DNA from: Escherichia phage vB_EcoM_ESCO10
Sequence record: OM386655.1
Direction: 5' to 3' (one strand)
DNA: 64,000 nucleotides
Part shown: piece by piece, positions 3,361-63,137 of the stretch
Position numbering within the stretch: the stretch's first letter is position 1
Layout of the letters: the number at the start of each line of letters is the position of its first letter
The notes under the pieces: model-generated
What the model was told of the DNA's origin: nothing
Databases searched by the model: none
Seen by the model: only the letters and a program-made list of their open reading frames with translations
Position numbers and translations under genes: made by a program

Positions 3361-3390
3361 ATAGTACCACATCCTTGTGGTGTTGTAAAC
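3361..3390 (-). promoter_or_regulatory. early promoter (sigma70-type, -35 GTTTAC / -10 TACTAT)
   Basis: minus strand GTTTAC-N18-TACTAT upstream of ORF 3042..3332; overlaps stop of alt paralog. Confidence 0.5.
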
Positions 3391-5513
3391 TACATTTTGA
3401 ATTTAGTTGGTAAAGCGGAGATGTTCAAAGATGCTGCAAGGATTTCCATAGCTTCGTTGCTTTCAGAAATAGATTCACTAATCAAGAATTGGCTGAATCC
3501 ATCCATCAGGCGAACTTCGCCGGTTTCCATCAAATGGTCACCATCGTAAACAGATTCGCTGAGCTCTGAAGGAGGTGTTACGGTAGCTTCCATAAGGTAT
3601 TTGTGAGACACTCTATCATTCATGGCAAAAGCCGCTACTTTATCAACCTTCAACAATAATCCGCGCGGAAGGATAATTTCTGCTTCTTCGGCATATTCTG
3701 TAAGGTCGCCGGGAGCGATAACTTTAACTGCTTCAGCACCTCGAATAACCATACCAATTTCAGCAATTCTATCCGCAGGGCCTTCAGGTGCAATTGGATT
3801 ACCAAACTCGTCTTCTTCCCATTCTACCTCTTCGTCATCGACTTCACCCACATCAGATGAACTACCACTAGCCAATTTAAACAACTCATCAGCGGAGGAT
3901 AAAGAACCTTCACCACCAACAAAAACGGCTTGGTTGTCGAGGGCCATATAATTTTTACCGAATTCACCAAAGATGTTAGGCTTTAATGAGGCTGACACAA
4001 AGTTCTTAAAGTAAAATGTTTTGTTATCGATATTATGGCGCAGAATTTTGTATGGCAAATCCTGACCACGATACAAAATAGTACCCTTAGGAAGTTTAAT
4101 ACCCTTAGTAAATGCTGAGTCTAAATCCTTAATCAATTTAATAGCCGTTGTATTGTTTTCGGATTCAGGTTTACCTAAAAGGAATAAGTTCATAGGAGCA
4201 TATTCAGCTGCGCAATATTCAATAATAGCGTTGCTTTCGTCTTTGGTTAGGTCCTTAGGTTTAATGAGCTCACCTGAATAAGCATATGCATCACTAATAG
4301 AATCGTTAATTAGTTTATAAACGGCTTCCATAGCGAAAGCAATTCGAGAGGCCTTTTCTGAAGGGGAGCCTTTAAAACGAGCGCTCAAGTTATTAACAAT
4401 TTTCTTAATAATATCCAGACTATTGGTGGTATTGATTTGCGAAAGGCCGCTTAAAAGTCTATCGACTTCTGTATTAAAAAATGCCATATTTTTAGAGTAA
4501 ATTTCAAACCCTTGTTTATCTCTATTAGCATAATTTAGTTTAAATTTACTATCAGTCATTAAAGCGTGCGTGAGAGCAATGGTGTATCTAAAGTTGGCAA
4601 GGTCCTCGCTCTTAGATTTAAACTGAGAAGCCTGGCGCATTTTGGTAATAGCACCTTTTTTAAAGTTCTGGCTAATCTGTTCAATACCTTCATTCTCAGG
4701 GCCTTCGGCAGTGTGAACCGGTACAGAAGCTTCAAATTCGTTATATACCTGCAATTCTTTAGGGGACAAAGTTTCAGGCTCAGCAGTAGAATACTGTGCG
4801 GCTGCTGCCATACGACGGGAAATCTTAGTACGGGTAATGACAGCCTTATCAGTACGTTTCTCTTCAACCTTAGCGATACTTGCCGCCATAGCTTCGACCT
4901 TACTTACGGCTTGACCTGTTTTCTTAGAAACATAAACTTCACCAACTTTAGACTCGACCTTAGTATAAAGATCGGCATCAATTTCAGGCATACCTTTGAT
5001 ATCTTCGATATTAGAACCACGACGTACTAAAAGAACGTAGGTATGTTTTCCACTGAATTGGAACATATCATCAACAACTTTAAACTTACCACCAGTACGA
5101 GCCATTACTAAACGAGCCAATACACGTTGTACAGTAGGGCCCTTACCTTTCATTTTCTTAGTAGGGAAACGGAACAGAACTGCGTCCATTTTAAGTTTGT
5201 TTACTTGTTCATATACTGTATCGAAAATAGTATTCAATGCACCAAGTGGGTCAGAACCAAGTCCACCTTTGAGTTCAGCCGGGGCTCCTTTGCTTGACAA
5301 ACTCATTAGAATAACATGAACATATTTGTCACCCGGCTTAACCATTTTAACTGCGTCTCCTTGAGACGCATAAGATACCATACGAGCAACAAGGTTATCA
5401 TTACCTGGAGCTTGAATAGAGAAAATCTGTGGGATACCGGAACCTGGTTTAAGATTTGTTACTGGATAGTTTTTAGCGGAATCACTATCAAAAACTTCGT
5501 TTAAATTTTCCAT
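3390..5513 (-). CDS. alt: Alt-like ADP-ribosyltransferase, paralog 1 (707 aa)
   Basis: Size and position match T4 alt (between 54 and 30); R-S-E ADP-ribosyltransferase motifs (LYRGQ ... FVSASL ... EAEIILPRG); N-terminal ~230 aa closely similar to the adjacent paralog. Confidence 0.7.
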   Translation of the reverse strand: MENLNEVFDSDSAKNYPVTNLKPGSGIPQIFSIQAPGNDNLVARMVSYASQGDAVKMVKPGDKYVHVILMSLSSKGAPAELKGGLGSDPLGALNTIFDTVYEQVNKLKMDAVLFRFPTKKMKGKGPTVQRVLARLVMARTGGKFKVVDDMFQFSGKHTYVLLVRRGSNIEDIKGMPEIDADLYTKVESKVGEVYVSKKTGQAVSKVEAMAASIAKVEEKRTDKAVITRTKISRRMAAAAQYSTAEPETLSPKELQVYNEFEASVPVHTAEGPENEGIEQISQNFKKGAITKMRQASQFKSKSEDLANFRYTIALTHALMTDSKFKLNYANRDKQGFEIYSKNMAFFNTEVDRLLSGLSQINTTNSLDIIKKIVNNLSARFKGSPSEKASRIAFAMEAVYKLINDSISDAYAYSGELIKPKDLTKDESNAIIEYCAAEYAPMNLFLLGKPESENNTTAIKLIKDLDSAFTKGIKLPKGTILYRGQDLPYKILRHNIDNKTFYFKNFVSASLKPNIFGEFGKNYMALDNQAVFVGGEGSLSSADELFKLASGSSSDVGEVDDEEVEWEEDEFGNPIAPEGPADRIAEIGMVIRGAEAVKVIAPGDLTEYAEEAEIILPRGLLLKVDKVAAFAMNDRVSHKYLMEATVTPPSELSESVYDGDHLMETGEVRLMDGFSQFLISESISESNEAMEILAASLNISALPTKFKM

Positions 5514-5516
5514 TAT

Positions 5517-11473: not shown

Positions 11474-11839
11474 TTAGATATCAAACTCGTTAAGAACTAC
11501 ATCAAAGATTGCTTCAAGATGTTCAGGTTTAGCTCGGTTACTCAGAATATGACGAATCCAAGTTTTAACTAAGAGTTTACGATTATCACCGTTCCAACAA
11601 GGATGAGTGCCTAAATCGCGTTCACGGAAATCATCATCTAGAGCGATTTTAAAGTTGGAACCTTCCTTAGTTATTGAAAGAGTGATACCGTTTTCAAATC
11701 GCATATAAACGTAGTTAGGAGTCATGCACTGCTCGATTTCACATACTGAACCGTTTTCATGTTTCCACAGGCAAATAACTTCAGAAGAACCAGCGATACC
11801 GTTAGAAACATATTTACGTTCGAAGTTGATGTAGTTCAT
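11474..11839 (-). CDS. hypothetical protein (121 aa)
   Basis: Track ORF; RBS AGGA upstream; promoter-like element with inverted repeat at 11873..11913. Confidence 0.5.
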   Translation of the reverse strand: MNYINFERKYVSNGIAGSSEVICLWKHENGSVCEIEQCMTPNYVYMRFENGITLSITKEGSNFKIALDDDFRERDLGTHPCWNGDNRKLLVKTWIRHILSNRAKPEHLEAIFDVVLNEFDI

Positions 11840-11872
11840 TTTATTATCCTTTGGTTTGATTTCGTATTATTT

Positions 11873-11913
11873 GGTACAGGTCTATAATAACACAACCTGT
11901 ACCAAAGTAAAAC
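11873..11913 (-). promoter_or_regulatory. early-type promoter (TTTTAC-N16-TATTAT) with -10 inside a 9-bp inverted repeat
   Basis: GGTACAGGT ... ACCTGTACC flanks the -10 element; upstream of ORF 11474..11839. Confidence 0.35.
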
Positions 11914-11915: not shown

Positions 11916-12248
11916 TTATTTCACAACATTCCAATTTTTCATATCAAGTTTACCAACTTTTTTCATCTGAGCAATCAGACGTTCGGCACGCTCACGAGCA
12001 GTAACATAATAGAATTCACCGATTTTGTTTTCTTCAATACGACCTGTAATTACAGTTTTCAGTTCATAAATCCAACCTGTAAAGAAGTTGTGAAGCTCGA
12101 TAGTAAAGGTGAAATCAGTACCCATACCTTCAGTGGTTTCAACTTCAATAATATCACCTTCAACCGCTGTCAGGACCCACATGGTTTCTTGATATTCACC
12201 GTTGAAACATTTAGCTTTAACAGATGCATTCAGGTTTACAGTTTTCAT
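11916..12248 (-). CDS. hypothetical protein (110 aa)
   Basis: Track ORF; RBS GGAG upstream; early promoter at 12290..12318. Confidence 0.5.
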   Translation of the reverse strand: MKTVNLNASVKAKCFNGEYQETMWVLTAVEGDIIEVETTEGMGTDFTFTIELHNFFTGWIYELKTVITGRIEENKIGEFYYVTARERAERLIAQMKKVGKLDMKNWNVVK

Positions 12249-12289
12249 TTTATTCTCCAGTTTGTTTTCGTATTTGTTGGTACAAGTCT

Positions 12290-12318
12290 ATAGTATCATG
12301 CCTACTGGAGAAGTAAAC
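12290..12318 (-). promoter_or_regulatory. early promoter GTTTAC-N17-TACTAT
   Basis: Consensus match on minus strand upstream of ORF 11916..12248. Confidence 0.5.
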
Positions 12319-13226: not shown

Positions 13227-13550
13227 TCACTTATAAAGACACGGAATAGCTTTATAATGACAAGTAACGAATTTCTGTTTAATTTCTTTAGGCTGTTTAA
13301 TACCTAATGCAACTAACGGATGAGGCACGTTAGCAATCTTACCGACAGGAAGTGGGGTCAAATCACCTACTTCACAAAAATCTTCAGGGACATCAGGTCC
13401 TACAGAATAAACTTCACAGAGTTCAGGGATTTCACCTTGATGAAGTTTGCCAATAACGATACCTGATGCAGTAGTTTCTTCATCACCAGCTTGTTTTGGT
13501 TCGGAAACGAGAATAATATATTCTCCGACCGCTTTAATAGGAAGTTCCAT
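13227..13550 (-). CDS. 31: co-chaperonin GroES analogue gp31
   Basis: 107 aa; near-complete match to recalled T4 gp31 (..AVGEYxILVSEP.QAGDEE ... [23 protein letters not shown]). Confidence 0.85.
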
Positions 13551-13581
13551 ATTTAATCCATGTTGTTTTGTTGATAAGATA

Positions 13582-13610
13582 ATAGTACCACATTATTCTT
13601 AAAGCATATT
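13582..13610 (-). promoter_or_regulatory. MotA-dependent middle promoter for gene 31
   Basis: minus strand ataTGCTTTAag - 12 nt - TACTAT, about 30 nt upstream of gp31 ATG. Confidence 0.5.
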
Positions 13611-15253: not shown

Positions 15254-15807
15254 CAGATAGTCTCCAACTTAAGTTGTCTTGTAGTGGTAGCTTGGGTAAC
15301 GTCGCCTTTAACGATATAACACACTTGTTGGAATGAATTAATCAAAAGCTCCTCGGCTTGTCGATCAGCTTGTTCCTTTGTGTTATGGCGAGAATGGACT
15401 TCAATCTTACCATTTTTAACTACAAGCACTTTCCAGTCGGCAGTAGTTTTTACAGGTTTAGGCTCATCGTTTTCAGGAATACTTACTGATGCCAATGGAC
15501 GTACCACTTCAATAAAGCATTCGAATTCATGGCCAAAAAAGCCTTCTGAATTAAAAAGAACACTATTTGAATCATCAGGATTACCTGTGATTTTACTCAG
15601 GTCAACAAACATCATCTCGTCATATACACGAATTCGGCTTACACGTTCGCGCCCATTATGATAATCAATTTCAACTTCAAACGGATTCATACCTACATAC
15701 TTGGCAAAAGCAGTATTAAGCCTGTAAGCACCGTTATTAGTGAATTTATTTTTATAATGCTCGCTTATAAATTTGTAAAACTTACGCTCTTCAAAGAACT
15801 TACCCAT
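15253..15807 (-). CDS. hypothetical protein (184 aa)
   Basis: Track ORF; RBS GAGG upstream; early promoter at 15827..15865. Confidence 0.5.
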   Translation of the reverse strand: MGKFFEERKFYKFISEHYKNKFTNNGAYRLNTAFAKYVGMNPFEVEIDYHNGRERVSRIRVYDEMMFVDLSKITGNPDDSNSVLFNSEGFFGHEFECFIEVVRPLASVSIPENDEPKPVKTTADWKVLVVKNGKIEVHSRHNTKEQADRQAEELLINSFQQVCYIVKGDVTQATTTRQLKLETI

Positions 15808-15826
15808 TTCGATTTCCTCATGTGTT

Positions 15827-15865
15827 GGTAGGACTACTATACCACAGTCCTACCATGGTGTAAAC
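15827..15865 (-). promoter_or_regulatory. early promoter GTTTAC-N18-TATAGT with -10 inside a 9-bp inverted repeat
   Basis: GGTAGGACT ... AGTCCTACC flanks the -10; upstream of ORF 15253..15807. Confidence 0.45.
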
Positions 15866-17828: not shown

Positions 17829-18307
17829 ACACCAAGCTCCTTATAAAGTTCTTCGCGACAGGTTTTAAGGATTTTACCAGTTTCATAAGCTGTGCTTTCA
17901 GAAACATCACCAAGTGCAGCGGCAGCTTGCATTTGACCATGGCGTTTAGCAGCATATTCAAAACTTTTTACTAGCTCACGAATACGTTCTTTTTCATTGT
18001 ATTCTCCAATAAATTCTGGATATTCCCAAACCGGGCGCATCATACGATACCACTGTTGGATGGTAATATAATTACTTCCATTCAAATTAATAATCTGTGA
18101 AGGCTCAATAGACCCTGGAGCATAAAAAGTTACCTGTCTTACTACATCAATACCGTCTACAATAGCCCAAGCAAAATCGAAAGTTGCCTTCTTTTCAATC
18201 GGCGTGCTTGCACAGGACCCTAGTTTAAGGAGCTTTTGTAATACAGGAGATTTAATACTTGAAATGTATTCAGGCTTAGCCACAAAACTGTTATCACGTA
18301 ATGTCAT
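17825..18307 (-). CDS. hypothetical protein (160 aa)
   Basis: Track ORF; RBS GAGGA upstream; early promoter at 18335..18369. Confidence 0.5.
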
Positions 18308-18334
18308 AATAATTTCCTCAATTTATAATCCGTA

Positions 18335-18369
18335 GGAGCATTATACTCTGCTCCCAAGAGTTTGTAAAC
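18335..18369 (-). promoter_or_regulatory. early promoter GTTTAC-N18-TATAAT with -10 inside inverted repeat
   Basis: GGAGCA ... TGCTCC flanks the -10; upstream of ORF 17825..18307. Confidence 0.45.
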
Positions 18370-19113: not shown

Positions 19114-19601
19114 TTGTTAATAATCTCAATGATGTCATCACGTGACAGGGAGTTAATAAGAACAGTTTTAGGATTTTCACACTGGATTTTGTATGTTTCA
19201 AACATCACACACAATTCTTCAGAGGTATGGTAAGGACTTGAAATACCGAGGCGATTAGTTTTATCACCTAGTGGGTCGCAAATCAAATAGAAAGTGATGC
19301 CAGCGATTTTAACATTAGGTTGACTGATATTAATGAACACGTGGGCATCATATTTGGAAAGGTTATTCTGAAGGAATTCGACCATTGCATTAACAGCTTC
19401 AGGCATGGCCTCACGTTTCTCTTCAGTATAACGAGTAGAATATTCTTTTTGTTTAATTTTCTTTTTAGCATTACGAGCCATCGTAACACGAAGGTCGGTG
19501 AGGTAACCAACTGCACGAGAACCTTTGAAAACTTGGATACCGTCAGTTGAGTCACCATAAGCCTTAACAATCATTTCGTTAGTGATAAGTTGCATGTTCA
19601 T
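19101..19601 (-). CDS. hypothetical protein (166 aa); possibly Alc by position and size
   Basis: Occupies the slot between rnlA and the spanins where T4 has alc (167 aa); sequence not independently recognised. Confidence 0.4.
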   Translation of the reverse strand: MNMQLITNEMIVKAYGDSTDGIQVFKGSRAVGYLTDLRVTMARNAKKKIKQKEYSTRYTEEKREAMPEAVNAMVEFLQNNLSKYDAHVFINISQPNVKIAGITFYLICDPLGDKTNRLGISSPYHTSEELCVMFETYKIQCENPKTVLINSLSRDDIIEIINKCLN

Positions 19602-19629
19602 TTTGTTTTCTCCTCATTAGTTGATAGGC

Positions 19630-19660
19630 TTATACTAACACATCATGAGGAGATGTAAAC
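19630..19660 (-). promoter_or_regulatory. early promoter GTTTAC-N17-TAGTAT
   Basis: Upstream of ORF 19101..19601; -35 overlaps rnlA stop. Confidence 0.4.
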
Positions 19661-22487: not shown

Positions 22488-24733
22488 CAAGCTGCACAAT
22501 CATCGGCTTTAGGAGTTTCGATTTCGTAATCGTCAGTACCAGAGCCATCACGGGTATTATGATAATAGAGATTTTTTCCGCCATAATACCAGAAGTACAT
22601 CAAGTCGTCAAGCATTACTGACATAGGAACTTTTCCTTTTGGAAAAATCTGTGGGTCGTAATATGTATTAGCTGACGCAGATTGGCATACCCATTTCAAC
22701 ATAATCGCTACCTGAGTCAGATAAGGTTTATTACCTTTCTTAGCCAGGGTCCAAGCGTAATCATACAATCCTTGGTTATGTTCTACATTAGGAACTACCT
22801 GACGGAAGTTACCTTCTTTAGATTCTTTAATACTTACTGGGCCGCGCGGAGGTTCGATACCGTTGGTAGAGTTTGAAACCTGGCTGCTTGACTCACATGG
22901 CATGAGTGCTGATAATGTGCTATTACGGATGCCATGTGCAGATAAGTCTTCCCGCAACTGCGACCAGTCACAAACGTATTTTGGAGCTGCGATTTGGTCA
23001 ATCTTTTTATTGTACCAGTCGATAGGAAGCTCGCCTCGAGACCATTTAGTGTCTGAATAATACTCGCAAGGTCCTTTTTCTTTGGCGAGCTTGATTGATG
23101 CTCGGATAAGGCCATACTGTAATCTCTCAAATAATTCATGGGTTAAATCATTAGCATCTTCATAAGAAGCAAAGTTGCTTGCCAACCAAGCGGCATAGTT
23201 CGTAACACCGACACCCAGGTTACGGCGCTTCTTAGCCTTCAGAGCTTCAGGAACAGGATAGCTTTGATAATCTAATAGGTTATCCAGCGCTCGCACTTGT
23301 ACTTCAGCGAGTTCGTTAATCTTGTCTTGGTCTTGCCACTCAAAGTTATCCAATACGAATGCAGACAGAGTACATAACCCAATTTCAGCTTCAGGGCTAT
23401 TTACGTCATTAGTCGGGATCGCAATTTCACAACACAAGTTGCTCTGACGGATAGGAGCACGTTCACGAATAAATGGGGTGAAGTTGTTAGTGTTATCTAC
23501 GAACTGAGGATAAATTCGAGCTGTGCCTGAACGTTCAGTCATGAACAATTCGAAGAGGTCGCGTGCTTTAATACGTTTCTTACGAATACTAGGGTCTTTT
23601 TCAGCCGCTTCATACAATTCGCGGAAACGGTCTTGGTCTTCAAAATAAGAATAATAAAGCTCACCACTCATTTCGTGAGGACTAAACAGTGTGATGTAAT
23701 CATTTTTACCGAAACGTTCCATCATAAGGTCGTTCAACTGGATTCCGTAGTCCATATGACGAATACGGTTCTCATCAACGCCTTTGTTGTTTTTCAGAAC
23801 GAGCAGATTTTCAACTTCCAAATGCCAAATAGGATAATAAGCAGTAGCAGCGCCGCCACGGATTCCACCTTGTGAACATGATTTAACTGCAGTCTGGAAA
23901 TGCTTCCAGAATGGAATAACACCGGTATGTTTGACTTCACCCATACCAATACGAGAACCTTCAGCACGAATCATACCAACGTTGATACCAATACCTGCAC
24001 GTTTAGAAATATATTCGATTATTGAGTTAGCAGTTTTATTAATTGATTTCAGCGAGTCACCGGCTTCAATAACAACGCAAGAACTAAACTGTCGGGTCGG
24101 AGTACGAGCACCTGCCATAATAGGAGTAGGCAATGAAATCTGACGGGTGCTAACAGCATCATAAAAACGAATAATATGCGCTAAACGATTACCCGGTTCT
24201 TCTTGGTGAAGAGCCATACCAATACACATGATAGCGAACTGAGGAGTTTCGTAGATTTTACCTGTGGTCTTATCTTTAACCAAGTATTTCTCTTTCAGCT
24301 GCATCGCTCCAGCATAGGTCAATTCGAAATCACGCTCATGCTTAATATGCGATTCTAAAAAAGTAATCTCTTCTGCAGAATATCGAGACAACAATTCAGG
24401 GTCATATTTGCCTTCGTTAACACAGTAGGAAATATGGTCAATAAAACTACGAGGTTCAAACTGACCGTAAACTTCTTTACGCAGAGCAAACATCAATTCC
24501 TTTGCAGCTACATACTGGTAATCAGGTTCTTCAACCGAAATAAGGTTGGCTGCAACTTTAACAGTCAGATTCTGTATATCTTTGGTGGTCATACCATCAC
24601 GAAGATGTAGTTTAATTTCTTCGTATAATTCGTAGGGATCGATTTGGGTTCCTTCACAACCCCAAGTCAAAACTTTAATAATTTTTTGTGAGTCAAAATC
24701 TTGGGATACACCACTACTCTTTTGTACTTGCAT
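22478..24733 (-). CDS. nrdA: ribonucleotide reductase large subunit
   Basis: 751 aa; N-terminal ATP-cone region and class I RNR active-site segments; T4 NrdA is 754 aa. Confidence 0.85.
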   Translation of the reverse strand: MQVQKSSGVSQDFDSQKIIKVLTWGCEGTQIDPYELYEEIKLHLRDGMTTKDIQNLTVKVAANLISVEEPDYQYVAAKELMFALRKEVYGQFEPRSFIDHISYCVNEGKYDPELLSRYSAEEITFLESHIKHERDFELTYAGAMQLKEKYLVKDKTTGKIYETPQFAIMCIGMALHQEEPGNRLAHIIRFYDAVSTRQISLPTPIMAGARTPTRQFSSCVVIEAGDSLKSINKTANSIIEYISKRAGIGINVGMIRAEGSRIGMGEVKHTGVIPFWKHFQTAVKSCSQGGIRGGAATAYYPIWHLEVENLLVLKNNKGVDENRIRHMDYGIQLNDLMMERFGKNDYITLFSPHEMSGELYYSYFEDQDRFRELYEAAEKDPSIRKKRIKARDLFELFMTERSGTARIYPQFVDNTNNFTPFIRERAPIRQSNLCCEIAIPTNDVNSPEAEIGLCTLSAFVLDNFEWQDQDKINELAEVQVRALDNLLDYQSYPVPEALKAKKRRNLGVGVTNYAAWLASNFASYEDANDLTHELFERLQYGLIRASIKLAKEKGPCEYYSDTKWSRGELPIDWYNKKIDQIAAPKYVCDWSQLREDLSAHGIRNSTLSALMPCESSSQVSNSTNGIEPPRGPVSIKESKEGNFRQVVPNVEHNQGLYDYAWTLAKKGNKPYLTQVAIMLKWVCQSASANTYYDPQIFPKGKVPMSVMLDDLMYFWYYGGKNLYYHNTRDGSGTDDYEIETPKADDCAACKL

Positions 24734-24751
24734 AATTTCCTCAATATGTTA

Positions 24752-24792
24752 GGTTCTATATCTATAATAACATAGAACCTGTTAAGCATGGA
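24752..24792 (-). promoter_or_regulatory. MotA-dependent middle promoter for nrdA, -10 inside 8-bp inverted repeat
   Basis: minus strand caTGCTTAAc - 12 nt - TATTAT; GGTTCTAT ... ATAGAACC flanks the -10. Confidence 0.45.
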
Positions 24793-26841: not shown

Positions 26842-27084
26842 TCAAACAGACTTTTTCACAATTTTCCAATCGGCTTTGAACTGGTCAACATCAGAGTGGT
26901 GAATCCAGAAACCAGATGAGCTACCATCTTCATAAAGAGGACAACCATCACACTCATCTTTCCAACCCATTGCACACAAAGTTTCTTCTGCTTTTTCCAG
27001 AGCTTCTGGATTATTACCTTGGATTGTGAAGTACCATTTGCCTTTAACTTCTGAATCTTTGATTGATTCACGTTTTAATTTCAT
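26842..27084 (-). CDS. hypothetical protein (80 aa)
   Basis: Track ORF; RBS GAGGAG upstream; promoter at 27107..27140. Confidence 0.5.
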   Translation of the reverse strand: MKLKRESIKDSEVKGKWYFTIQGNNPEALEKAEETLCAMGWKDECDGCPLYEDGSSSGFWIHHSDVDQFKADWKIVKKSV

Positions 27085-27106
27085 TTTATTCTCCTCAAGT
27101 TGATAA

Positions 27107-27140
27107 GGCTATAGTATCACTACCATAGCCTGTTGTAAAC
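27107..27140 (-). promoter_or_regulatory. early promoter GTTTAC-N18-TACTAT, -10 inside inverted repeat
   Basis: AGGCTAT ... ATAGCCT flanks the -10; upstream of ORF 26842..27084. Confidence 0.45.
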
Positions 27141-27142: not shown

Positions 27143-27370
27143 TTATTTTTGAATTAAGCCCATATAAAATTCAGCATCTTCAGCATGCATACCATCACAA
27201 TACTCGTCAGCCATAAAACGAGTCAGGTCTTCAAGAGGACCTTGGATTTCAATTTGGATACTAAAGAATTGAGTATCTTTGATGTAAGCCATACTCAAAG
27301 AAGGATAACGATTACGGATAACTTCGTAAGTGTATTCAAAATCGACGATATCAATATTAACTTTAGCCAT
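27143..27370 (-). CDS. hypothetical protein (75 aa)
   Basis: Track ORF 27143..27460 trimmed to MAKVNIDIV.. with RBS GAGGAAAA; the N-terminal 30 residues of the track ORF are translation of the promoter. Confidence 0.5.
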
Positions 27371-27398
27371 TTTATTTTCCTCATGTTTTGATATGTCT

Positions 27399-27427
27399 AT
27401 AGTATCATGTTTAAAGGGGTTGTAAAC
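27399..27427 (-). promoter_or_regulatory. early promoter GTTTAC-N17-TACTAT
   Basis: Upstream of ORF 27143..27370. Confidence 0.5.
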
Positions 27428-41982: not shown

Positions 41983-42254
41983 AAATTGGAGGTATACATC
42001 ATTAGATAACGGTGTATATCTTCATACCCTTCATTAAATTGCTCAATAAGAGTATCACGTTCATCTTCAGTTAAAGACTTAAAGAGTTTATTAAAAGATA
42101 GACCATTAAGTTCCTTTCCTTGTTCATTACGAATACCTAGCTCGTTCAAAAAGGCAATAAACTCATCACGACGTTGCATGATGTCTTCACAATCCGTTTT
42201 AATTAAAATAGAAACAATAGTAGCAATTTCAGAAACGATTTCAATTTTAGTCAT
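41979..42254 (-). CDS. asiA: anti-sigma70 factor AsiA
   Basis: 91 aa; similarity to recalled T4 AsiA (..IVSEIATIVSILIK...FIAFLNE ... EQFNEGYE..HRYLMMYT); converges on t. Confidence 0.8.
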   Translation of the reverse strand: MTKIEIVSEIATIVSILIKTDCEDIMQRRDEFIAFLNELGIRNEQGKELNGLSFNKLFKSLTEDERDTLIEQFNEGYEDIHRYLMMYTSNF

Positions 42255-42312
42255 TTTAATTTACTCAAGTATTCAATAGGACGTTCATTTATTCAGTAAG
42301 AATATTGTAACA

Positions 42313-42477
42313 CTATTCTTCTAGGTTGTACACATGATTTTTCATCCGTACAACATATTCCTGATATATCTCTTCTACTGGTTCCTGGAACTTAAAATCA
42401 GCTCCCAGGAATTCCTCAAAGCACTCCTGCTCACGTGTACGTTGACCTGATACAGTGTTCTCTAAGTTATGACTCAT
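42313..42477 (-). CDS. small acidic protein (54 aa)
   Basis: Track ORF 42313..42564 trimmed to internal Met MSHNLENTVSGQ..; upstream part is better explained by the overlapping basic-peptide ORF. Confidence 0.3.
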   Translation of the reverse strand: MSHNLENTVSGQRTREQECFEEFLGADFKFQEPVEEIYQEYVVRMKNHVYNLEE

Positions 42478-43843: not shown

Positions 43844-44476
43844 TTAAATTGCATTAGTTACGGTTTTGATAACTTCAGATGATACGTTTTGGAAGTCAAT
43901 ATAAGTATTCTTACCACCAGTCTTAATCTTAACATCAAGGTTCAAGGAAGTAAACACTTGTTTTTCTTTATCAGACATATTATAACCGAAGATGCGCATC
44001 ATTCCATCACGACGAACTTCGATTTGACGAATACCTGCAGTACGTTTTGCGAATCGAACTTCAAGATTACTACGGTTTTCAGCGATTTCACGAATCTCAA
44101 TACGTTCTTCTAACAAAGCTTTGACTTCATCAGCCAGAGTAATCATTTCTGGAGTAACACCACGTGAACTACGTGTTTTACGTTTTTCCAGCATCTCTGG
44201 AGCATTTTCAGAAGCGAACAAATCGGCAGCTTTTTGAACTAGGTCCATTGCTTCACCTGTAGCCACTAAACCGTCACCAGATTTTTCGATAAAACCTTTC
44301 TTAATCAATACACCAATGTTAGAGTTAACTACCGCGGCACTAAATTGCTCACTCAGGGCTTCACGGACTTCGCCTGAAGTGATGAAGTTGTGCTTGATGA
44401 TATGTACTAAGATCGAAGCAGTTTTTTCATTCAGGACGTCTTCAGAAGCTTTGATGATATAAGTAATTTTAGACAT
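43844..44476 (-). CDS. motA: middle-transcription activator MotA
   Basis: Internal Met MSKITYIIKASEDVLNEKTA.. matches recalled T4 MotA (211 aa); RBS GGAG; the track N-terminal 32 residues are promoter read-through. Confidence 0.85.
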   Translation of the reverse strand: MSKITYIIKASEDVLNEKTASILVHIIKHNFITSGEVREALSEQFSAAVVNSNIGVLIKKGFIEKSGDGLVATGEAMDLVQKAADLFASENAPEMLEKRKTRSSRGVTPEMITLADEVKALLEERIEIREIAENRSNLEVRFAKRTAGIRQIEVRRDGMMRIFGYNMSDKEKQVFTSLNLDVKIKTGGKNTYIDFQNVSSEVIKTVTNAI

Positions 44477-44510
44477 TTTAATCTCCGATAACCATTTATT
44501 TGATAGGTCT

Positions 44511-44539
44511 ATAGTATCATGTTTAAAGCATAAGTAAAC
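44511..44539 (-). promoter_or_regulatory. early promoter GTTTAC-N17-TACTAT for motA with an embedded MotA box (TGCTTTA) in the spacer
   Basis: minus strand GTTTACttaTGCTTTAaacatgaTACTAT. Confidence 0.5.
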
Positions 44540-46620: not shown

Positions 46621-47069
46621 TAGTATGCCTGCAGAATGAATTTAAAGTTATCAGCCAGGATTCGGTTCATTTCTTCCAGGGTCTGGAGGTCTGAACTATG
46701 ATTACGAGTGAAAGCCATTGCAATTTGGCCTTTACCAAAACCTGTAGTCAGAGGTTTCATTTTAGAAGCAGGTACATAAAGAACTTCATACAGGACACTG
46801 TTAGTTTTCATGGTACGGTTGGCTTGAGAACGAGCTGAACGAATATTCTTAAGAACACCATCCAGACCTTGTCCTGAGCGCTGGTTACCTACATAGAAGC
46901 GAGCAGCTACGATACGGTTTTCACCAACACCTTTAACAAAGAAATAGAAGCCTGGTTGGGCTGCTGTTTCTTTAGAAGGCCTGCCAATTTTGTATTCGCC
47001 GTTCATAACGTAAGCAACGGTAGTAGCACCAGCAGTCAGAACATTTTTGCGAGTCATATAAGTAGTCAT
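46620..47069 (-). CDS. ndd: nucleoid disruption protein Ndd
   Basis: 149 aa; strong similarity to recalled T4 Ndd ([10 protein letters not shown] ... [24 protein letters not shown] ... [19 protein letters not shown]). Confidence 0.85.
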
Positions 47070-47113
47070 ATCAATTTCCTCAGTAAATGATTTATTATCC
47101 AGTCAACGAGAAC

Positions 47114-47143
47114 CATTATAACATGATTCTCGAGGTTGTAAAC
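47114..47143 (-). promoter_or_regulatory. early promoter GTTTAC-N16-TATAAT for ndd
   Basis: Upstream of ndd RBS GAGGA. Confidence 0.5.
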
Positions 47144-47754: not shown

Positions 47755-47871
47755 TCAGAAGAAATAGTTAAAATATACACGTACATGGTCAATCATAAAA
47801 GCGATTGGGAAAATGCATAATACCATAAACAGAATAAACATGTTCCAAATTGCTTTAAGTAACTTTTTCAT
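47755..47871 (-). CDS. small membrane peptide (38 aa), not in ORF track
   Basis: MKKLLKAIWNMFILFMVLCIFPIAFMIDHVRVYFNYFF; RBS GGAG 7 nt upstream; promoter at 47898..47926. Confidence 0.4.
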   Translation of the reverse strand: MKKLLKAIWNMFILFMVLCIFPIAFMIDHVRVYFNYFF

Positions 47872-47897
47872 AATCATCTCCATTAGTTGATAGGTCT

Positions 47898-47926
47898 ATA
47901 GTATCATGTCTAATAGAGATGTAAAC
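47898..47926 (-). promoter_or_regulatory. early promoter GTTTAC-N17-TACTAT
   Basis: Upstream of ORF 47755..47871. Confidence 0.5.
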
Positions 47927-48016: not shown

Positions 48017-48283
48017 TCAAAATATCACCTCTTTGATTTCAATCAATCCATCAGACAATGCAGTGCGGAGGTCATAAAGAATATCTATACCATCAATATT
48101 GTCCAGCTTACCATCAATAAGCTTTTTTAAATCACGCTTTGAGGCAACTAGTGGGCGAAGAAATTTACAATCAGAAAGAGATAACTCTGTAGTAACATCA
48201 TCACCATCACCTGACGCATCATACATAGCGGCAACAACCATACCTGTAACTTTGTGTTTGGCGTAGTATAATTTAATATCCAT
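48017..48283 (-). CDS. hypothetical protein (88 aa)
   Basis: Track ORF 48017..48322 trimmed to MDIKLYYAKHKV.. with RBS GAGGA; the track N-terminus is promoter read-through. Confidence 0.45.
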   Translation of the reverse strand: MDIKLYYAKHKVTGMVVAAMYDASGDGDDVTTELSLSDCKFLRPLVASKRDLKKLIDGKLDNIDGIDILYDLRTALSDGLIEIKEVIF

Positions 48284-48312
48284 TTTGTTTTCCTCTCGTA
48301 GTTGATAGGAAG

Positions 48313-48342
48313 ATAGTAACACCGTCCTTGGTGTATGTAAAC
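48313..48342 (-). promoter_or_regulatory. early promoter GTTTAC-N18-TACTAT
   Basis: Upstream of ORF 48017..48283. Confidence 0.45.
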
Positions 48343-52872: not shown

Positions 52873-53182
52873 TTTTAACTACCTCATGTTGAACATATTC
52901 TCTGGTAGAACCTAGTTCAGCCAGAATTCTTCTCATAGAACCCATTGTGCTTTTGTGCTCTCTATGGCGATACATTATCTCTAAAACCTTTTCCTGGACA
53001 ACACGAGAGAGCGCCTGGTTATCTTTAATCTTTAAGGCAATAGATTTTACAGCCTTGAGATATTCGAGTCCCTTGCCGCTTGTAATCACTATTCCTTCAT
53101 CTCTACAATTGCTAATTGCAGTCTCCATAAAAGACAAGGCCAAGTTGTCGGTATTCACTATACTATTATCTTGCATAATCAT
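52859..53182 (-). CDS. hypothetical protein (107 aa)
   Basis: Track ORF; RBS GAGG; promoter at 53201..53230. Confidence 0.45.
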   Translation of the reverse strand: MIMQDNSIVNTDNLALSFMETAISNCRDEGIVITSGKGLEYLKAVKSIALKIKDNQALSRVVQEKVLEIMYRHREHKSTMGSMRRILAELGSTREYVQHEVVKNDKL

Positions 53183-53200
53183 ATTATCACCTCTTAGAGA

Positions 53201-53230
53201 ATCATATCACACTTTTAATCTGGTGTAAAC
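53201..53230 (-). promoter_or_regulatory. early promoter GTTTAC-N18-TATGAT
   Basis: Upstream of ORF 52859..53182; -35 overlaps the U-run of the preceding terminator. Confidence 0.4.
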
Positions 53231-56172: not shown

Positions 56173-56383
56173 TATAGGTCTCCTTCCAGAAGTCGGTGCC
56201 TTCAGCAGTGATTTCACGGAACACACCGTAAATAGGATTTTTATCATCTTGATTTTCGTATACATAAATCGATGATAAGTGAGAAAAAGTATCAGAGTGT
56301 TCCTTTTGGACCACGATTAAATCAGGGTTGAACAGAACGTCTTCAAATTCTTCACGGGTCAAGTTCACGGTAACTTTAGCCAT
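56165..56383 (-). CDS. hypothetical protein (72 aa)
   Basis: Track ORF 56165..56431 trimmed to MAKVTVNLTREEF.. with RBS GAGGA; track N-terminus is promoter read-through. Confidence 0.45.
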   Translation of the reverse strand: MAKVTVNLTREEFEDVLFNPDLIVVQKEHSDTFSHLSSIYVYENQDDKNPIYGVFREITAEGTDFWKETYNA

Positions 56384-56412
56384 TTTATTTTCCTCATCTA
56401 CACTTGTTTTTT

Positions 56413-56451
56413 GATAGGGTAATCTTATCACTACCCTATATTGTTGTACAC
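56413..56451 (-). promoter_or_regulatory. early-type promoter (GTGTAC-N18-TAAGAT) with -10 inside inverted repeat
   Basis: AGGGTA ... TACCCT flanks the -10; upstream of ORF 56165..56383. Confidence 0.3.
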
Positions 56452-56464: not shown

Positions 56465-57031
56465 TTATGCACGATGAATATTGGCATACTCGACGATAAA
56501 GCTTTCAGGAACCACCTTAAAGGTTCCTATGAATACGATGTTATAGAGCTTAACACCTTCTTCAACCCACTGGTCAGTGATGTACCCAGACATGCTAGTG
56601 GTTTCATAAGTACCAAACTCTTCATCAATATATTCAAATGGTTTAGGTGAAACGAAAAAGACGCCTTGACCTAATTTCCATTTAAAATCAACACCAACAT
56701 GAGACTGGTCAATGGTTTCAACTTCTTGAGCCGGCACGCCACGGATATCATTGCTTTCGCACACATATCCATCATGAGATTCAACTTCTTCAACTACAGG
56801 AGCGACATATCCGGTAAATTCAGTTGATTCCAGGAATTTAGCACGCACATAAGCGAATTGGGTTTCCGTCTGGCCATTTTTAGGAATGATGCGTACTTTT
56901 ACTTCAGAGTTTTCAGGGCAGACACCTTCTTTAAGTTGAATACTAACAACTTCAACTAAACGGCCTGCAGCTTTTGAACGAGATTGTTTGGATACGCGAA
57001 CGATACCACCGATATTGGAAATAGAAATCAT
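56465..57031 (-). CDS. hypothetical protein (188 aa), paralog family member
   Basis: C-terminal block GYITDQWVEEGVKLYNIVFIGTFKVVPESFIV shared with the adjacent 247-aa protein. Confidence 0.5.
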   Translation of the reverse strand: MISISNIGGIVRVSKQSRSKAAGRLVEVVSIQLKEGVCPENSEVKVRIIPKNGQTETQFAYVRAKFLESTEFTGYVAPVVEEVESHDGYVCESNDIRGVPAQEVETIDQSHVGVDFKWKLGQGVFFVSPKPFEYIDEEFGTYETTSMSGYITDQWVEEGVKLYNIVFIGTFKVVPESFIVEYANIHRA

Positions 57032-57067
57032 AATTTTTCTCTCTTGGTTAAAGGTTTATTCTCCATG

Positions 57068-57102
57068 AGAGCCATTATAACATGGCTCTCGATAAAGTAA
57101 AC
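57068..57102 (-). promoter_or_regulatory. early promoter GTTTAC-N17-TATAAT, -10 inside inverted repeat
   Basis: GAGCCAT ... ATGGCTC flanks the -10; upstream of ORF 56465..57031. Confidence 0.5.
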
Positions 57103-57848: not shown

Positions 57849-58354
57849 AATTTTCTCATTTCAATAAAATCTACGAGTTCAGCATGGGATTTGCGGAACA
57901 TTACTTGGTGGTCACCAATGACAACCTCATCTTCAGGAATTTCGTAAACAGCAAGATAGAATCCTTTAGAAGATAATTCTTCGCGTTCTTCACGAGTGAA
58001 CCACCGCATCATATCATACTCGCTGGCAAAAGCAAAATGGTAGAGGTTAACAAACCAGCTAGGGATATAGTTATCTACATCTTTATAATCTTCATGTTTG
58101 AATTTGGTTTTAATTACTGCGTTAGAATTTCTAACCAACAGCTCGTCTTGACTAGGTAGCGGAATGTTTTTATTATTAGTATGATGGTGTCTAAAATTAG
58201 GTCTGTCGAACCCCACTTCTAATAACCATCCTTCACTCCATTCATCAAATGAGCCTCTATACGGTGTTAATTGGCGACATTGTTGGCGGGTGATTGCGAT
58301 AACATCGCCGTTATCTAAGATACTGAACGATGACTCGACTCGATAAATTTTCAT
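57845..58354 (-). CDS. hypothetical protein (169 aa)
   Basis: Track ORF; ATGA overlap with downstream gene; RBS GAGGAG; promoter at 58381..58409. Confidence 0.5.
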   Translation of the reverse strand: MKIYRVESSFSILDNGDVIAITRQQCRQLTPYRGSFDEWSEGWLLEVGFDRPNFRHHHTNNKNIPLPSQDELLVRNSNAVIKTKFKHEDYKDVDNYIPSWFVNLYHFAFASEYDMMRWFTREEREELSSKGFYLAVYEIPEDEVVIGDHQVMFRKSHAELVDFIEMRKL

Positions 58355-58380
58355 TTTGTTCTCCTCATGTTGATAGGGCT

Positions 58381-58409
58381 ATAGTATCATATCATGAGGA
58401 GAAGTAAAC
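58381..58409 (-). promoter_or_regulatory. early promoter GTTTAC-N17-TACTAT
   Basis: Upstream of ORF 57845..58354. Confidence 0.5.
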
Positions 58410-60959: not shown

Positions 60960-60960
60960 G

Positions 60961-61704
60961 TTAACCTCTAATCAATGAGAAAATTGAAGCATTCAATGGA
61001 AGACCTTTTTTCAACTTCAATTTGTCAATAAAAGAAAGGTGTTCTAAACGCTCCAGACCTTGAATAATTTTATCATACATATCGTAACGCGTTTCTGCTT
61101 CAGACAATTTAAACTTGGCACGCCAATCAGGCCCACCAATTAAAGATTTAAGCCCTTTTTCCATTATACCAATCGAAGCGTTAGAACCATGGATACGAGC
61201 TTTAACTGCGATAACAGAAGGAGTTTTATCGGTAGCTCCTGATTTAATAAGTTCCTTAAGACGATTTTCACGTTTCTTAAGACCTTTTTGGGTAGCTTTG
61301 ATATTTTTAATGATTTTACGAATTTTATAATAATTATCAGGAGTAACTTTAAAACTATTTGGCATTTTAGAACCGCCTGAAATACGACCTGCTAAACGGG
61401 TCTGAGCACGTTTCAATTCATCAAGAGATAAATCAGCCCGTAAGCCGTTATACTTAACTTTAACCGGGATTACATTACCCTCGACATATCCTAGGCCGTT
61501 ATTGAATCGTTCGAATGATACTTTATCCTGGGTTGAGTCCTCATCAAATCTCTCGCCGGAATAGGCACAGAATTCCTGTCTCAAAAGATTAGCGATATAC
61601 TTGCTAGTCAGATTGAAATCCTTACCTCGGCGCTTAGCAGAAGTTTTAGTGTGCTCACGGCGTTTGTAAACTTTTAACGCAAACTCTTCTTTTGATAAGT
61701 TCAT
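60961..61704 (-). CDS. hypothetical protein (247 aa); Srd-like by position
   Basis: Track ORF between the Mod genes and dda where T4 has srd; basic, Lys/Arg-rich. Confidence 0.45.
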   Translation of the reverse strand: MNLSKEEFALKVYKRREHTKTSAKRRGKDFNLTSKYIANLLRQEFCAYSGERFDEDSTQDKVSFERFNNGLGYVEGNVIPVKVKYNGLRADLSLDELKRAQTRLAGRISGGSKMPNSFKVTPDNYYKIRKIIKNIKATQKGLKKRENRLKELIKSGATDKTPSVIAVKARIHGSNASIGIMEKGLKSLIGGPDWRAKFKLSEAETRYDMYDKIIQGLERLEHLSFIDKLKLKKGLPLNASIFSLIRG

Positions 61705-61744
61705 GATATTTTTCTCATCTTACGGACGATTAGCTAATAGGTCT

Positions 61745-61773
61745 ATAGTATCACGTTACTCTATAAAGTAAAT
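61745..61773 (-). promoter_or_regulatory. early promoter ATTTAC-N17-TACTAT
   Basis: Upstream of ORF 60961..61704. Confidence 0.45.
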
Positions 61774-61842: not shown

Positions 61843-62457
61843 TCAGTAAGAAAGAACGGAAAGATTCCAGATGGTGTAATTATTCCATTTAGGATTTCTC
61901 TCAATAGAGTCTACGCGCAGCGTAGTTCCCGCAGGGAACATCATCTCATCTTCATCATTTATTAATTGCAAGTTTGCTACACGGGTAGATTCAGGAAATG
62001 CGCCTGGGAACTCTTCAGGGGGCGCAGCACATAACATTTTAAAGATTTCTTCCTGATAATTGTACACAAATGGTGCATCATTAATACAAAAGATGTTAAA
62101 TGTTCCATAGAAGTTATAAGATGCAAAATTCCTTGCCACGTTGAAGTCTTTAGAGAAGCTCATCACGCGGTCGAATTCAATTACCGCACCTACACACATT
62201 GTGGACTCTAGATACTTCATAGTCTTTTTAGATATGCCGCGATAGAGCTTATCGGGCACTACAGAAGACAGGTTCTTACGAATAATTTTGTTCAGAGTTT
62301 CCTGGATACAATCCGGTTTATTTTCCATGCACTGCCAGAGTGTGCTCTGTTCTAAATCAGAATACACCTCATCAATTTCTATCTGAGTATTCTCACGGAA
62401 ATCATCGCATTTGACATTGTTGATAAATTCTGCTAATTTATGGCTTGGGTATAACAT
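61843..62457 (-). CDS. Mod-type ADP-ribosyltransferase (ModA-like by position, 204 aa)
   Basis: R-S-E ART motifs (LYRGIS ... SFSKD ... DEDEMMF); paralogous to the upstream gene; T4 ModA is 200 aa. Confidence 0.6.
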   Translation of the reverse strand: MLYPSHKLAEFINNVKCDDFRENTQIEIDEVYSDLEQSTLWQCMENKPDCIQETLNKIIRKNLSSVVPDKLYRGISKKTMKYLESTMCVGAVIEFDRVMSFSKDFNVARNFASYNFYGTFNIFCINDAPFVYNYQEEIFKMLCAAPPEEFPGAFPESTRVANLQLINDEDEMMFPAGTTLRVDSIERNPKWNNYTIWNLSVLSY

Positions 62458-62482
62458 ATTATTCTCCTCAGTTGATAGAAAG

Positions 62483-62512
62483 ATAGTAACATAAGCTTCC
62501 TTGCTTGTAAAC
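62483..62512 (-). promoter_or_regulatory. early promoter GTTTAC-N18-TACTAT
   Basis: Upstream of ORF 61843..62457; -35 overlaps upstream gene stop. Confidence 0.45.
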
Positions 62513-63084
62513 TAAAAATCTAACATTTTTAAATGGATTGTTTTGTATTCTATTTCAAGTGGGTCTCTTTTGATAGTTTCTATTTCAACAATCTCGAATC
62601 GTGATAGGCTAGAGACCATGAACTCACATTCAGTTTCGACCATATCATAGAGGTCCACACGAGTTTCGTTGATTCCATTGTCTTCTACGTTCCCTGCAAG
62701 AACCAAGTCAATAGCATGGTTGTAGTAGTCAAAAATGAATGGCGCGTTCCTGAGACTTAAAATGGTCTTGGTTCCATATTCCCAAGCGCCTGCGAACTGA
62801 CGAGCTTGCGAGTATTGTGTACTAAAAGAAGTAACACGACCAGGAGACCATTGGCACCCTACTGTAAGAAATCTTAACTGTCTGAGCTCTTCTGGGGTAA
62901 TCCCACGATACAACTCTACAGGAACAGCAGAAGTCATATGCTTACGAACCAGCTTGTCTAGGTCATAATGGAAATTAGGGTCTTCTTTAGAATTCAGACA
63001 TTTCTCTAAAAGGGCTTGTTCAGGTTTTGAGAATTTAGAATTGATTCGGTCTTGATAAAGGCACATTTCTTGTTCGATGTTCAT
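62512..63084 (-). CDS. Mod-type ADP-ribosyltransferase (ModB-like by position, 190 aa)
   Basis: R-S-E ART motifs (LYRGIT ... SFSTQ ... ECEFMV); SD GGAGG upstream. Confidence 0.6.
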   Translation of the reverse strand: MNIEQEMCLYQDRINSKFSKPEQALLEKCLNSKEDPNFHYDLDKLVRKHMTSAVPVELYRGITPEELRQLRFLTVGCQWSPGRVTSFSTQYSQARQFAGAWEYGTKTILSLRNAPFIFDYYNHAIDLVLAGNVEDNGINETRVDLYDMVETECEFMVSSLSRFEIVEIETIKRDPLEIEYKTIHLKMLDF

Positions 63085-63108
63085 ATGACCTCCAGTGATT
63101 TAGAGGTC

Positions 63109-63137
63109 ATTATAACATGAAGGGAGGAGGTGTAAAC
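63109..63137 (-). promoter_or_regulatory. early promoter GTTTAC-N17-TATAAT
   Basis: Upstream of ORF 62512..63084. Confidence 0.5.

Follow-up and report, generated by a model that had tools for sequence, protein, structure and literature searches.

The early promoters of phage T4 carry the consensus GTTTAC at -36 to -31 (PMC1524935) in a UP/-35/TGn/-10 layout (PMC2988021). T4-type phages are known to carry promoter and stem-loop cassettes, or PeSLs (Arbiol et al. 2010, PMC2839356; Comeau et al. 2014, PMC4122927), and these papers mention PeSL-like sequences of phage JS98 in passing, near g43. Experiments on the T4 genes e, soc, 49 and I-TevI showed a hairpin that masks the initiation region; an internal promoter gives the translatable transcript, whereas the longer RNA is silent. 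These four genes are the only ones given for masking with an embedded promoter in the review of T4 post-transcriptional control (PMC3014915). Here, we describe the early promoters in a 64,000-nt stretch of Escherichia phage vB_EcoM_ESCO10 (record OM386655.1; the whole stretch is called the window), about half of which lie within inverted repeats, and compare them with these systems.

The sites in the window match the T4 early promoters (Pe class) in consensus, spacing, strand and downstream gene set, and orthologous promoters are present at the 30.7, 30.8, cd.3, alc, alt.-3, frd and ndd loci. There is no essential difference; the window has TACTAT as its -10 more often. The likeness to PeSLs lies in the order of the elements: within an AT-rich tract the stop codon of the upstream gene, then a strong early promoter of sigma-70 type, a stem-loop, a Shine-Dalgarno (SD) sequence and the ATG. 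In the PeSLs of RB49 and phi1, the stem-loop is mostly in the -35/-10 interval or over the -10, as in the window, and the MotA-box promoter equivalent of the PeSL (PmSL) is resembled by the site at window position 24764. In T4 and PST, by contrast, the papers put the stem-loops just upstream of the promoter and not across the -10. They read the stem-loops as terminators and make no mention of SD pairing, and the stems in the window differ in having neither G/C tracts nor a U-tail.

The second likeness is to e, soc, 49 and I-TevI: their long transcripts have a paired SD, and the own transcripts are without the 5' arm of the helix; the same is predicted for five sites in the window. The embedded promoter of these genes is a late one (TATAAATA, gp55) that delays a late gene, whereas in the window it is early or middle and the RNA reading through from an upstream promoter (read-through RNA) would be silenced. 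Because the embedded promoter is an early sigma-70 promoter, the arrangement would work like this class but was not filed as a member of it. The SD-masking subclass described below would be a variant, of modest novelty, on the mechanism of T4 e/soc/49.

A family of early promoters on the minus strand

Exact matches to GTTTAC-N17/18-TAYTAT were found 10 times and exact matches to GTTTAC-N17/18-TATAAT five times, all on the minus strand, compared with 0.05 and 0.07 expected from shuffled sequences. A two-block weight matrix trained on obvious family members scored 22 early-type sites at 18–52, all of them on the minus strand; the plus strand had no such site and reached 8.7 at most. A preliminary description of this DNA had counted at least 21 such sites on the minus strand. 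The family is real, but only 15 sites match exactly and a count of 21 needs relaxed matching. The family is invisible to a generic TTGACA/TATAAT sigma-70 scan, which found 56 matches versus 60 expected from shuffles. One weight-matrix match, at 18540, was rejected: its good -10 sits 23 nt from a -35-like hexamer.

The -35 GTTTAC is exact at 17 of the early sites and has one mismatch at five. The spacer is 17 or 18 bp at 22 of 22 early sites, the -10 has the form TAnnnT and a TGn extended -10 is present at 21 of the 22. An A-rich UP-like tract (.tt.aaaaAata) lies directly 5' of GTTTAC. The extended consensus reads.tt.aaaaAataGTTTACat ... caTGaTActATag.CcTatcaa and includes conservation in the initial transcribed region. 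Between the -10 and the ATG, 18–49 nt were measured, rather than the 20–40 nt first given.

The genes directly downstream were identified with PHROG (E 1e-35 to 1e-89) as modB, modA, srd, motB.2-like, motB, cef, ndd, motA, asiA and alc, and by synteny as rnh, frd.1/.2/.3, 30.7, 30.8 and alt.-3. The same matrix applied to the early regions of T4 gave 38 sites, on the early strand only, and 207 of 208 sites in the pooled loci were on the gene strand. The GTTTAC consensus, the immediate-early genes downstream and the T4 orthologues identify the sites as T4-type immediate-early promoters, as first proposed. The proposal has to be amended for at least two MotA-dependent middle promoters: at two further sites, 24764 (first given as 24752) and 13582 (gene 31), a MotA box TGCTT replaces the -35. 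A MotA-box regular expression missed 24764 and found few stems, and the middle-promoter count is at least two. The promoter named Pe133295 in the T4 record has its coordinate 7 nt downstream of the predicted -10, and from this the rule was taken that +1 is 7 nt after the -10. Initiation at the early sites would be by unmodified host RNA polymerase, right after infection and about 7 nt past the -10.

The stop codon of the upstream open reading frame (ORF) overlaps the -35 or is at most 4 nt away at 12 of 23 sites, and at most 15 nt away at 14 of 23. At 63137, 62512, 47143, 19660 and 3390, a TAG stop and the -35 have a G in common (taGTTTAC); the stop that overlaps at 13609, a middle-promoter site, is TAA. 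Where the stop codon overlaps the -35, the coding sequence reaches the promoter edge. Canonical terminators lie immediately upstream of five promoters (motA, 107-aa ORF, frd.2-like, 30.8 and modB). This terminator-then-promoter order is the layout drawn for the PeSLs of T4 and PST.

It had also been suggested that translation through the promoter element inflates many ORFs and produces recurrent false N-termini. This holds but is minor, and was overstated: only 4 of 23 sites (56422, 48313, 44511 and 27399) have a frame that stays open through the -35, and an in-frame upstream start is present at 6 of 23. For the sites checked, the program-made ORF list starts at the SD-supported ATG, as does a rule that takes the first start after a stop. 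An 18-letter peptide and CFKHDTIDLSNKW occur once each, and 'MLLSSYQLREENK' really reads VLLSS..., its first residue being encoded by GTG.

Inverted repeats across the start sites

Two architectures account for most of the helices. In the tight type, a stem of 7–12 bp closes a loop of 6–13 nt, and the -10 is within the loop at most of these stems. It was found at eight early sites (motB 57074, cef 56422, ndd 47115, asiA 42304, frd.1 27111, 18340, 15836 and 30.7 11884) and also at the middle promoter 24764. In the SD-masking type, the SD with its flanking bases forms the 3' arm and the part of the spacer that directly follows the -35 forms the 5' arm, with helices of 8–12 bp. This type was found at five sites: modB 63109, motB.2-like 58381, the 38-aa ORF 47898, alc 19632 and 30.8 12290. 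modB is an exception in that its 5' arm is the -10/+1 segment. A third, minor pattern is a stem-loop entirely within the spacer (caccAAGGAcggtg), at 48313 and 3361. Stem registers vary by site, and loops range from 6 to 42 nt. The preliminary description had placed the -10 in a hairpin loop at eight or more sites and listed seven positions. All seven have stems of 6–12 bp with the -10 in the loop, one of them being the MotA-box middle promoter; two more tight stems, at 47115 and 42304, and the five SD-masking stems were absent from it.

The excess of helices over chance was measured against chimeras, in which the upstream half of each promoter was joined to the downstream half of every other, so that the shared consensus was preserved. 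Native halves paired with -11.0 kcal/mol versus -7.5 kcal/mol for chimeras (p<5e-5). Pooling the window with 31 related loci and T4 gave a set of 151 unique promoters. A gapless helix across the -10 with a score of at least 8 was present in 37.7% of these promoters and in 4.1% of the chimeras. The excess persisted in 44 non-redundant clusters: tight helices with a score of at least 8 were found in 7 of 44 (chimeras 0.7%), SD helices with this score in 6 of 44 (1.5%) and SD helices with the 5' arm anywhere upstream of +1 in 8 of 44 (1.9%), each with p<=5e-5. In T4 alone, 12 of 34 promoters had a helix score of at least 8 (2.2% of chimeras), and this set includes regB, alc and alt.-3. In the window, the score was at least 6 at 13 of 23 sites and at least 8 at 9 of 23, with fold z-scores of -2.5 to -6.2.

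The helices are biased towards pairs that RNA tolerates. G·T and A·C were scored identically during the helix search and counted afterwards. The 68 unique helices held 41 G·T versus 6 A·C (p=2e-7), compared with 886 versus 855 in chimeras; base composition therefore does not account for the bias. The counts were 14 versus 2 in cluster representatives and 17 versus 2 in T4 alone. Because each sense-strand G·T reads as A·C on the template, selection for the structure appears to act on the sense strand, as for a G·U-tolerant RNA helix, which argues against cruciforms and protein operators.

Pairing is also conserved through sequence change. In the cassette of the 160-aa ORF, pair 19/32 is G-C, C-G or U-G across phage variants, and all variants still pair. 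In the motB cassette, 3 of 3 substitutions create G·U. At the 30.8 and motB.2 loci, SD pairing is kept through a change of the flanking bases (actggagaa vs caaagga; catgaggagaa vs actgagga). The orthologue-specific pair counts, from 4 distinct rows, were not significant alone (85 of 500 shuffles).

Counted from +1, the SD-masking 5' arms occupy -29 to -19 or -2 to +5. Where the 5' arm is upstream of the own start site, the own transcript cannot form the helix, and only read-through RNA is expected to fold. At motB.2-like, the 38-aa ORF and alc, the predicted probability that the SD is unpaired was 0.46–0.58 in own-start RNA and ~0.00 in read-through RNA; it dropped from 0.17 to 0.00 at modB and from 0.86 to 0.25 at 30.8. 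The mean over 23 sites was 0.57 for own-start and 0.33 for read-through RNA (p=7e-4).

Individual promoters and their genomic setting

A 5-kb sample of the window shared 97% identity with Escherichia phage vB_EcoM-VR5 and 93% with JS98, and by its sequence the window is that of a JS98/VR5-like T4-type phage (genus Dhakavirus, Tevenvirinae). The gene order is as in T4. The plus strand carries 29-48-54 and the tail-fibre genes 34-38 with t. On the minus strand, alt, 30, 31, cd, pseT, alc, rnlA, denA, nrdB/A, td, frd, 32, 59, 33, dsbA and rnh follow in T4 order, and a second minus-strand block holds asiA, arn, motA, 52, ndd, rIIB/A, 39, goF, cef, motB, dexA, dda, srd and modA/B. Unlike in T4, there are no group I introns in td and nrdB within the window, and an Rfam search of window positions 1-64000 gave no family at the gathering threshold. 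No promoter annotation was present in the related records examined, and a literature search found no promoter analysis of VR5/VR7 and no T4 start-site or Term-seq data set.

Table 1. Promoters and terminators in the window with their predicted pairing (MFE, minimum free energy; z, fold z-score).
Feature	Position	Strand	Class	Details
modB promoter	63082..63137	-	Early	SD-masking; -35 63137-63132, -10 63114-63109, ATG 63084; atgacctc (-10 end to just before +1) pairs with gaggtcat over SD; MFE -14.3, z -3.6; alternative pairing of spacer acctcc with ggaggt
modA promoter	62455..62512	-	Early	No strong helix (score 4.4); upstream stop overlaps -35 G
srd promoter	61702..61773	-	Early	-35 ATTTAC; no strong helix
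motB.2-like promoter	58352..58409	-	Early	SD-masking; spacer ttctcctcatg / catgaggagaa, 11 bp; MFE -19.4, z -5.6; SD predicted unpaired 0% in read-through vs 58% in own-start RNA
motB promoter	57029..57102	-	Early	Tight; gagagccat / atggctctc, 9 bp, 6-nt loop with -10; MFE -20.4, z -6.2
cef promoter	56381..56451	-	Early	-35 GTGTAC; tight; atagggtagt / attaccctat, 10 bp including one G·U
107-aa ORF promoter	53180..53230	-	Early	Terminator agggccgcaaggccct + ttttagg directly upstream; no helix across -10
88-aa ORF promoter	48281..48342	-	Early	Stem-loop entirely within spacer (caccaaggacggtg); weak cttcct/aggaa reaches SD
38-aa ORF promoter (Ndd.4-like by synteny)	47869..47926	-	Early	SD-masking; catctctattag / ctaatggagatg, 12 bp including one U·G; MFE -17.4, z -4.8
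ndd promoter	47067..47143	-	Early	Tight; cgagaatcat / atggttctcg, 10 bp including one U·G; outer cctc/gagg reaches SD
motA promoter	44474..44539	-	Early	Only consensus 5-bp TGATA/TATCA stem; canonical terminator upstream 44562-44581
asiA promoter	42252..42333	-	Early	-35 GTGTAC; tight; aagaata / tattctt, 7 bp
rnh promoter	31326..31388	-	Early	Weak pairing atgaac/gttcat beside start codon
frd.2-like promoter	28054..28113	-	Early	Spacer tcctc / gagga weak, 5 bp; terminator upstream
frd.3 promoter	27368..27427	-	Early	Only consensus TGATA/TATCA stem; source of 18-letter read-through peptide
frd.1 promoter	27082..27140	-	Early	Tight; aggctat / atagcct, 7 bp
nrdA.1-like ORF promoter	24731..24790	-	Middle	MotA box TGCTTaa, 11 nt, TATTAT; 9-12 bp stem aggttctat / atagaacct, -10 in loop; MFE -14.5, z -4.2
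alc promoter	19599..19660	-	Early	SD-masking; tctcctcat / atgaggaga, 9 bp; z -4.5; SD predicted unpaired 0% in read-through vs 46% in own RNA
160-aa ORF promoter	18305..18369	-	Early	Tight; tgggagca / tgctccta, 8 bp
184-aa ORF promoter (JS98 orf212-like)	15805..15865	-	Early	Tight; tggtaggact / agtcctacca, 10 bp; positional counterpart of T4 Pe133295
Gene 31 promoter	13548..13609	-	Middle-type	MotA box taTGCTTta, 12 nt, TACTAT; stem weak, bulged
30.8 promoter	12246..12318	-	Early	SD-masking; ttctccagt / actggagaa, 9 bp, 42-nt loop
30.7 promoter	11837..11912	-	Early	-35 TTTTAC; tight; tttggtacaggt / acctgtaccaaa, 12 bp; z -5.2; same arm has alternative pairing with accaaag at SD
alt.-3 promoter	3330..3390	-	Early	Stem-loop within spacer (ccacaaggatgtgg); nothing strong across -10
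Canonical terminators	44562-44581, 53236-53251, 28120-28145, 12345-12366			UUCG-type or other short loops + T-run

At several loci the relatives carry different stems. The motB.2 orthologues L008-L012 of the related loci keep SD pairing with other flanking bases (tcctcggt/actgagga), and at the 30.8 locus, T4 and L020-L023 have tcctttg/caaagga on the SD instead. At the gene 31 promoter locus, relatives have 9-bp stems of other sequence at the same place. The 30.7 locus of L028 has an unrelated 13-bp stem.

The T4 helices can be long. The T4 regB promoter, with its -35 at T4 62797, has a 15-bp spacer/SD helix (ttttcctcttgactg/cagttaagaggagaa). The T4 promoters with the -35 at 65413 and 53943 have SD helices of 10 and 13 bp, and the one with the -35 at 57990 has a perfect 14-bp stem around the -10. 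In the T4 alc promoter, the spacer pairs with the SD, as it does in the window.

Whole cassettes were also found at differing loci. The cassette GTTTACaaactcttggga[g/c/t]cagagTATAAT stands before the 160-aa ORF in the window (18340-18369) and before motB in L009-L012. At the 15836 locus, L016 and L018 have a cassette like that at 48313, while in L019 a half-promoter remnant (gaTACTATagacctatcaac) is fused upstream of a complete promoter. The cassette moves and the half-promoter remnant look like PeSL-type recombination scars. In the motB cassette of the window (57055-57068, minus strand), a vestigial SD, catggagaataaa, comes directly after the -10 stem and the working SD and ATG follow ~20 nt downstream, a layout suggestive of gene insertion or replacement behind an older cassette.

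Two further observations concern single sites. Promoter-like sites stand in tandem, 30 nt apart, at window positions 47898-47956: GTTTAT-N17-TAAAAT (47928-47956) is followed by GTTTAC-N17-TACTAT. In the JS98 record (L001 24502-24897), the start of nrdA.1 is placed upstream of the MotA-type promoter, with an overlap of ~40 nt with td. The SD-supported ATG of nrdA.1 is at window position 24733, and the public JS98 annotation is probably too long.

What the hairpins may do

The explanation that we consider moderately probable as a whole is that early and middle promoters are built into hairpins that only read-through RNA can fold, with SD masking or another form of insulation as the effect. Host sigma-70 RNA polymerase would read each early promoter, 18–49 nt 5' of a host-takeover gene's start codon. 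Of the 23 promoters, about 13 are built into an inverted repeat with its 5' arm upstream of the own start, mostly in the -35/-10 spacer. RNA from the own promoter would be without the 5' arm and stay unfolded, and RNA from an upstream promoter would have both arms and fold. With the five SD-masking cassettes, ribosomes would translate the gene on its own transcript, and on read-through RNA it would stay silent. The eight tight cassettes would be insulated by another route, the stem acting as an attenuator, a pause site, a processing site or a 3'-end stabiliser; that tight stems insulate the cassette in such a way is probable.

Protection from the nuclease RegB may be part of this. The target of RegB with S1 is GGAG plus an A-rich AAUAAAA, and secondary structure inhibits RegB (PMC1702504, PMC3014915). 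The mRNAs of T4 motB, motB.2 and modB are substrates. Many cassettes in the window share a conserved 3' end, GGAGAAUAAAAUG (e.g. 27082-27097, 12246-12260 and 62455-62470), that matches this target; the window does not include regB. RegB probably acts on the early mRNAs here. As RegB is blocked by structure, read-through RNA would be protected at its internal sites, and in the masked cassettes the GGAG would also be shielded.

The strongest alternative is the PeSL model taken literally: the stem-loops terminate or attenuate upstream RNA polymerase, and the cassettes matter chiefly as recombination sites for gene shuffling. The stem-loop of RB49 PeSL211/210 cut lacZ expression as much as the rrnB T1 terminator, and the position of the RB49 and phi1 stem-loops agrees with that in the window (PMC2839356). 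The formation of mini-circles by recombination is a further experimental feature of PeSLs (PMC2839356). Cassette exchange, the half-promoter scar and the vestigial SD in relatives fit the PeSL recombination model as well; as to an association of indels between relatives, individual cassette swaps and the half-promoter scar were seen as single cases. Rho-independent terminators are likewise intergenic RNA stem-loops, but the -10-spanning stems here are AT-rich and without a U-tract. The tight stems have a mean of 1.9 T in the next 8 nt (maximum 3) and a stem GC of 0.44, and a terminator scan of 42–62 kb flagged none of the 4 tight stems there. Canonical termination is therefore unlikely. Helices spanning the -10 were weaker behind upstream canonical terminators (mean score 5.9 vs 7.1), as this model expects, but the difference is a trend only (p=0.12). 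The model also leaves unexplained why five 3' arms are SDs with covarying flanks. We regard it as rather unlikely. The preliminary description had proposed that the hairpin acts as a processing or termination signal on read-through transcripts. Action on read-through RNA agrees with the 5' arm upstream of the start and with the G·T bias, whereas its termination variant found no support in the canonical sense.

In translational coupling, the hairpin would mask the SD of polycistronic RNA and be melted by a ribosome that terminates at the neighbouring upstream stop, so that the downstream gene would be translated together with the upstream one instead of being silenced. The upstream stops overlapping or close to the -35 at 12 of 23 sites suit this, as does their distance of 6–10 nt from the 5' arm at modB, alc and motB.2. 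However, a ribosome with the stop codon in its A site unwinds only about 4–5 nt past the codon, and the upstream stop is 90 nt away at 47898 and 51 nt away at 12290, the latter with an intervening terminator. We consider coupling an improbable explanation.

Action at the DNA level, with the repeats as operators for a dimeric regulator, as cruciforms or as non-template hairpins that help or hinder the opening of the -10, is less probable still, and we give it very little credence. Most tight stems have the -10 in their loop, where it could matter that the DNA is single-stranded, and DNA hairpins also tolerate G·T. Yet stem sequences are wholly different between sites and orthologues, which speaks against a common sequence-specific protein site, and a cruciform has to pair on both strands, while sense-strand G·T, outnumbering A·C 41 to 6, is A·C on the template. 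Moreover, stems of 7–12 bp with loops of 6–17 nt extrude poorly as cruciforms, and the SD-type loops of 23–42 nt are implausible for DNA. Finally, it is scarcely credible that the repeats are chance or a by-product of a repeated, partly palindromic consensus: the consensus does hold a 5-bp TGATA/TATCA repeat around the -10 and 22% of chimeras reach a score of at least 6, but native promoters beat same-family chimeric halves at every threshold (p<=5e-5) and T4 independently agrees, so that chance is rejected for helices of score >=8 and possible for single sites scoring 6–7.

Several points weigh against hairpins that silence or insulate read-through RNA. The SD pairing probability was no higher with native than with borrowed upstream halves (0.327 vs 0.339, p=0.37), meaning that masking comes partly from the pyrimidine-rich spacer common to the whole family; site specificity of SD masking was seen by the helix-length measure only. 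The SD-type loops are long, and the upstream stop is often so close to the 5' arm that a terminating ribosome might open the stem. No convincing helix was found at 9 of 23 promoters. The helices of the pooled set are phylogenetically non-independent, and the cluster-level contrast of G·T to A·C was 14 to 5 (p=0.06). Single-stranded DNA, too, tolerates G·T better than any other mismatch, which makes a hairpin of the non-template DNA strand formally possible. Start sites, read-through and folding in vivo are predictions for this phage, and the translational and insulating effects of the hairpins are likewise deduced from sequence.

The evidence for selection on sense RNA and the anti-SD role of the promoter spacer, also in T4, may be new. 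A wider reading is that across the Tevenvirinae, T4 included, early and middle promoters are systematically placed in sense-RNA-selected hairpins straddling the start sites, with the spacer doubling as an anti-SD in a sizeable subclass, so that each early cistron would be translatable and RegB-cleavable only on its own-promoter transcript. The T4 promoters of regB, alc, alt.-3 and 30.8 and those at T4 53943, 65413 and 166807 can be cited for it. This generalisation is tentative, a serious possibility that falls short of being probable. No description of such an anti-SD arrangement was found in a literature search that did not take in the older primary T4 literature (Liebig & Rüger 1989; Miller et al. 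2003).

As regards annotation, 22 early promoters and at least 2 middle ones are placed by the matrix in a Dhakavirus genome; the public records of its relatives are free of promoter features. The true start codons of 4–6 small genes are also fixed. The cassettes are compact, self-insulating expression units as proposed here and could serve phage engineering. If confirmed, the hairpins would extend the mechanism of four late-expressed T4 genes to the early gene class. The finding bears on two open questions in T4 (PMC2988021, PMC3014915), namely the shut-off of early proteins and the escape of long 'delayed-early' transcripts from RegB and other nucleases. If it holds throughout the Tevenvirinae, it would amount to a general layer of post-transcriptional insulation, in which read-through copies are both silent and protected. 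It would then help to explain why early-protein synthesis collapses when the early promoters are shut off, despite continuing read-through transcription.

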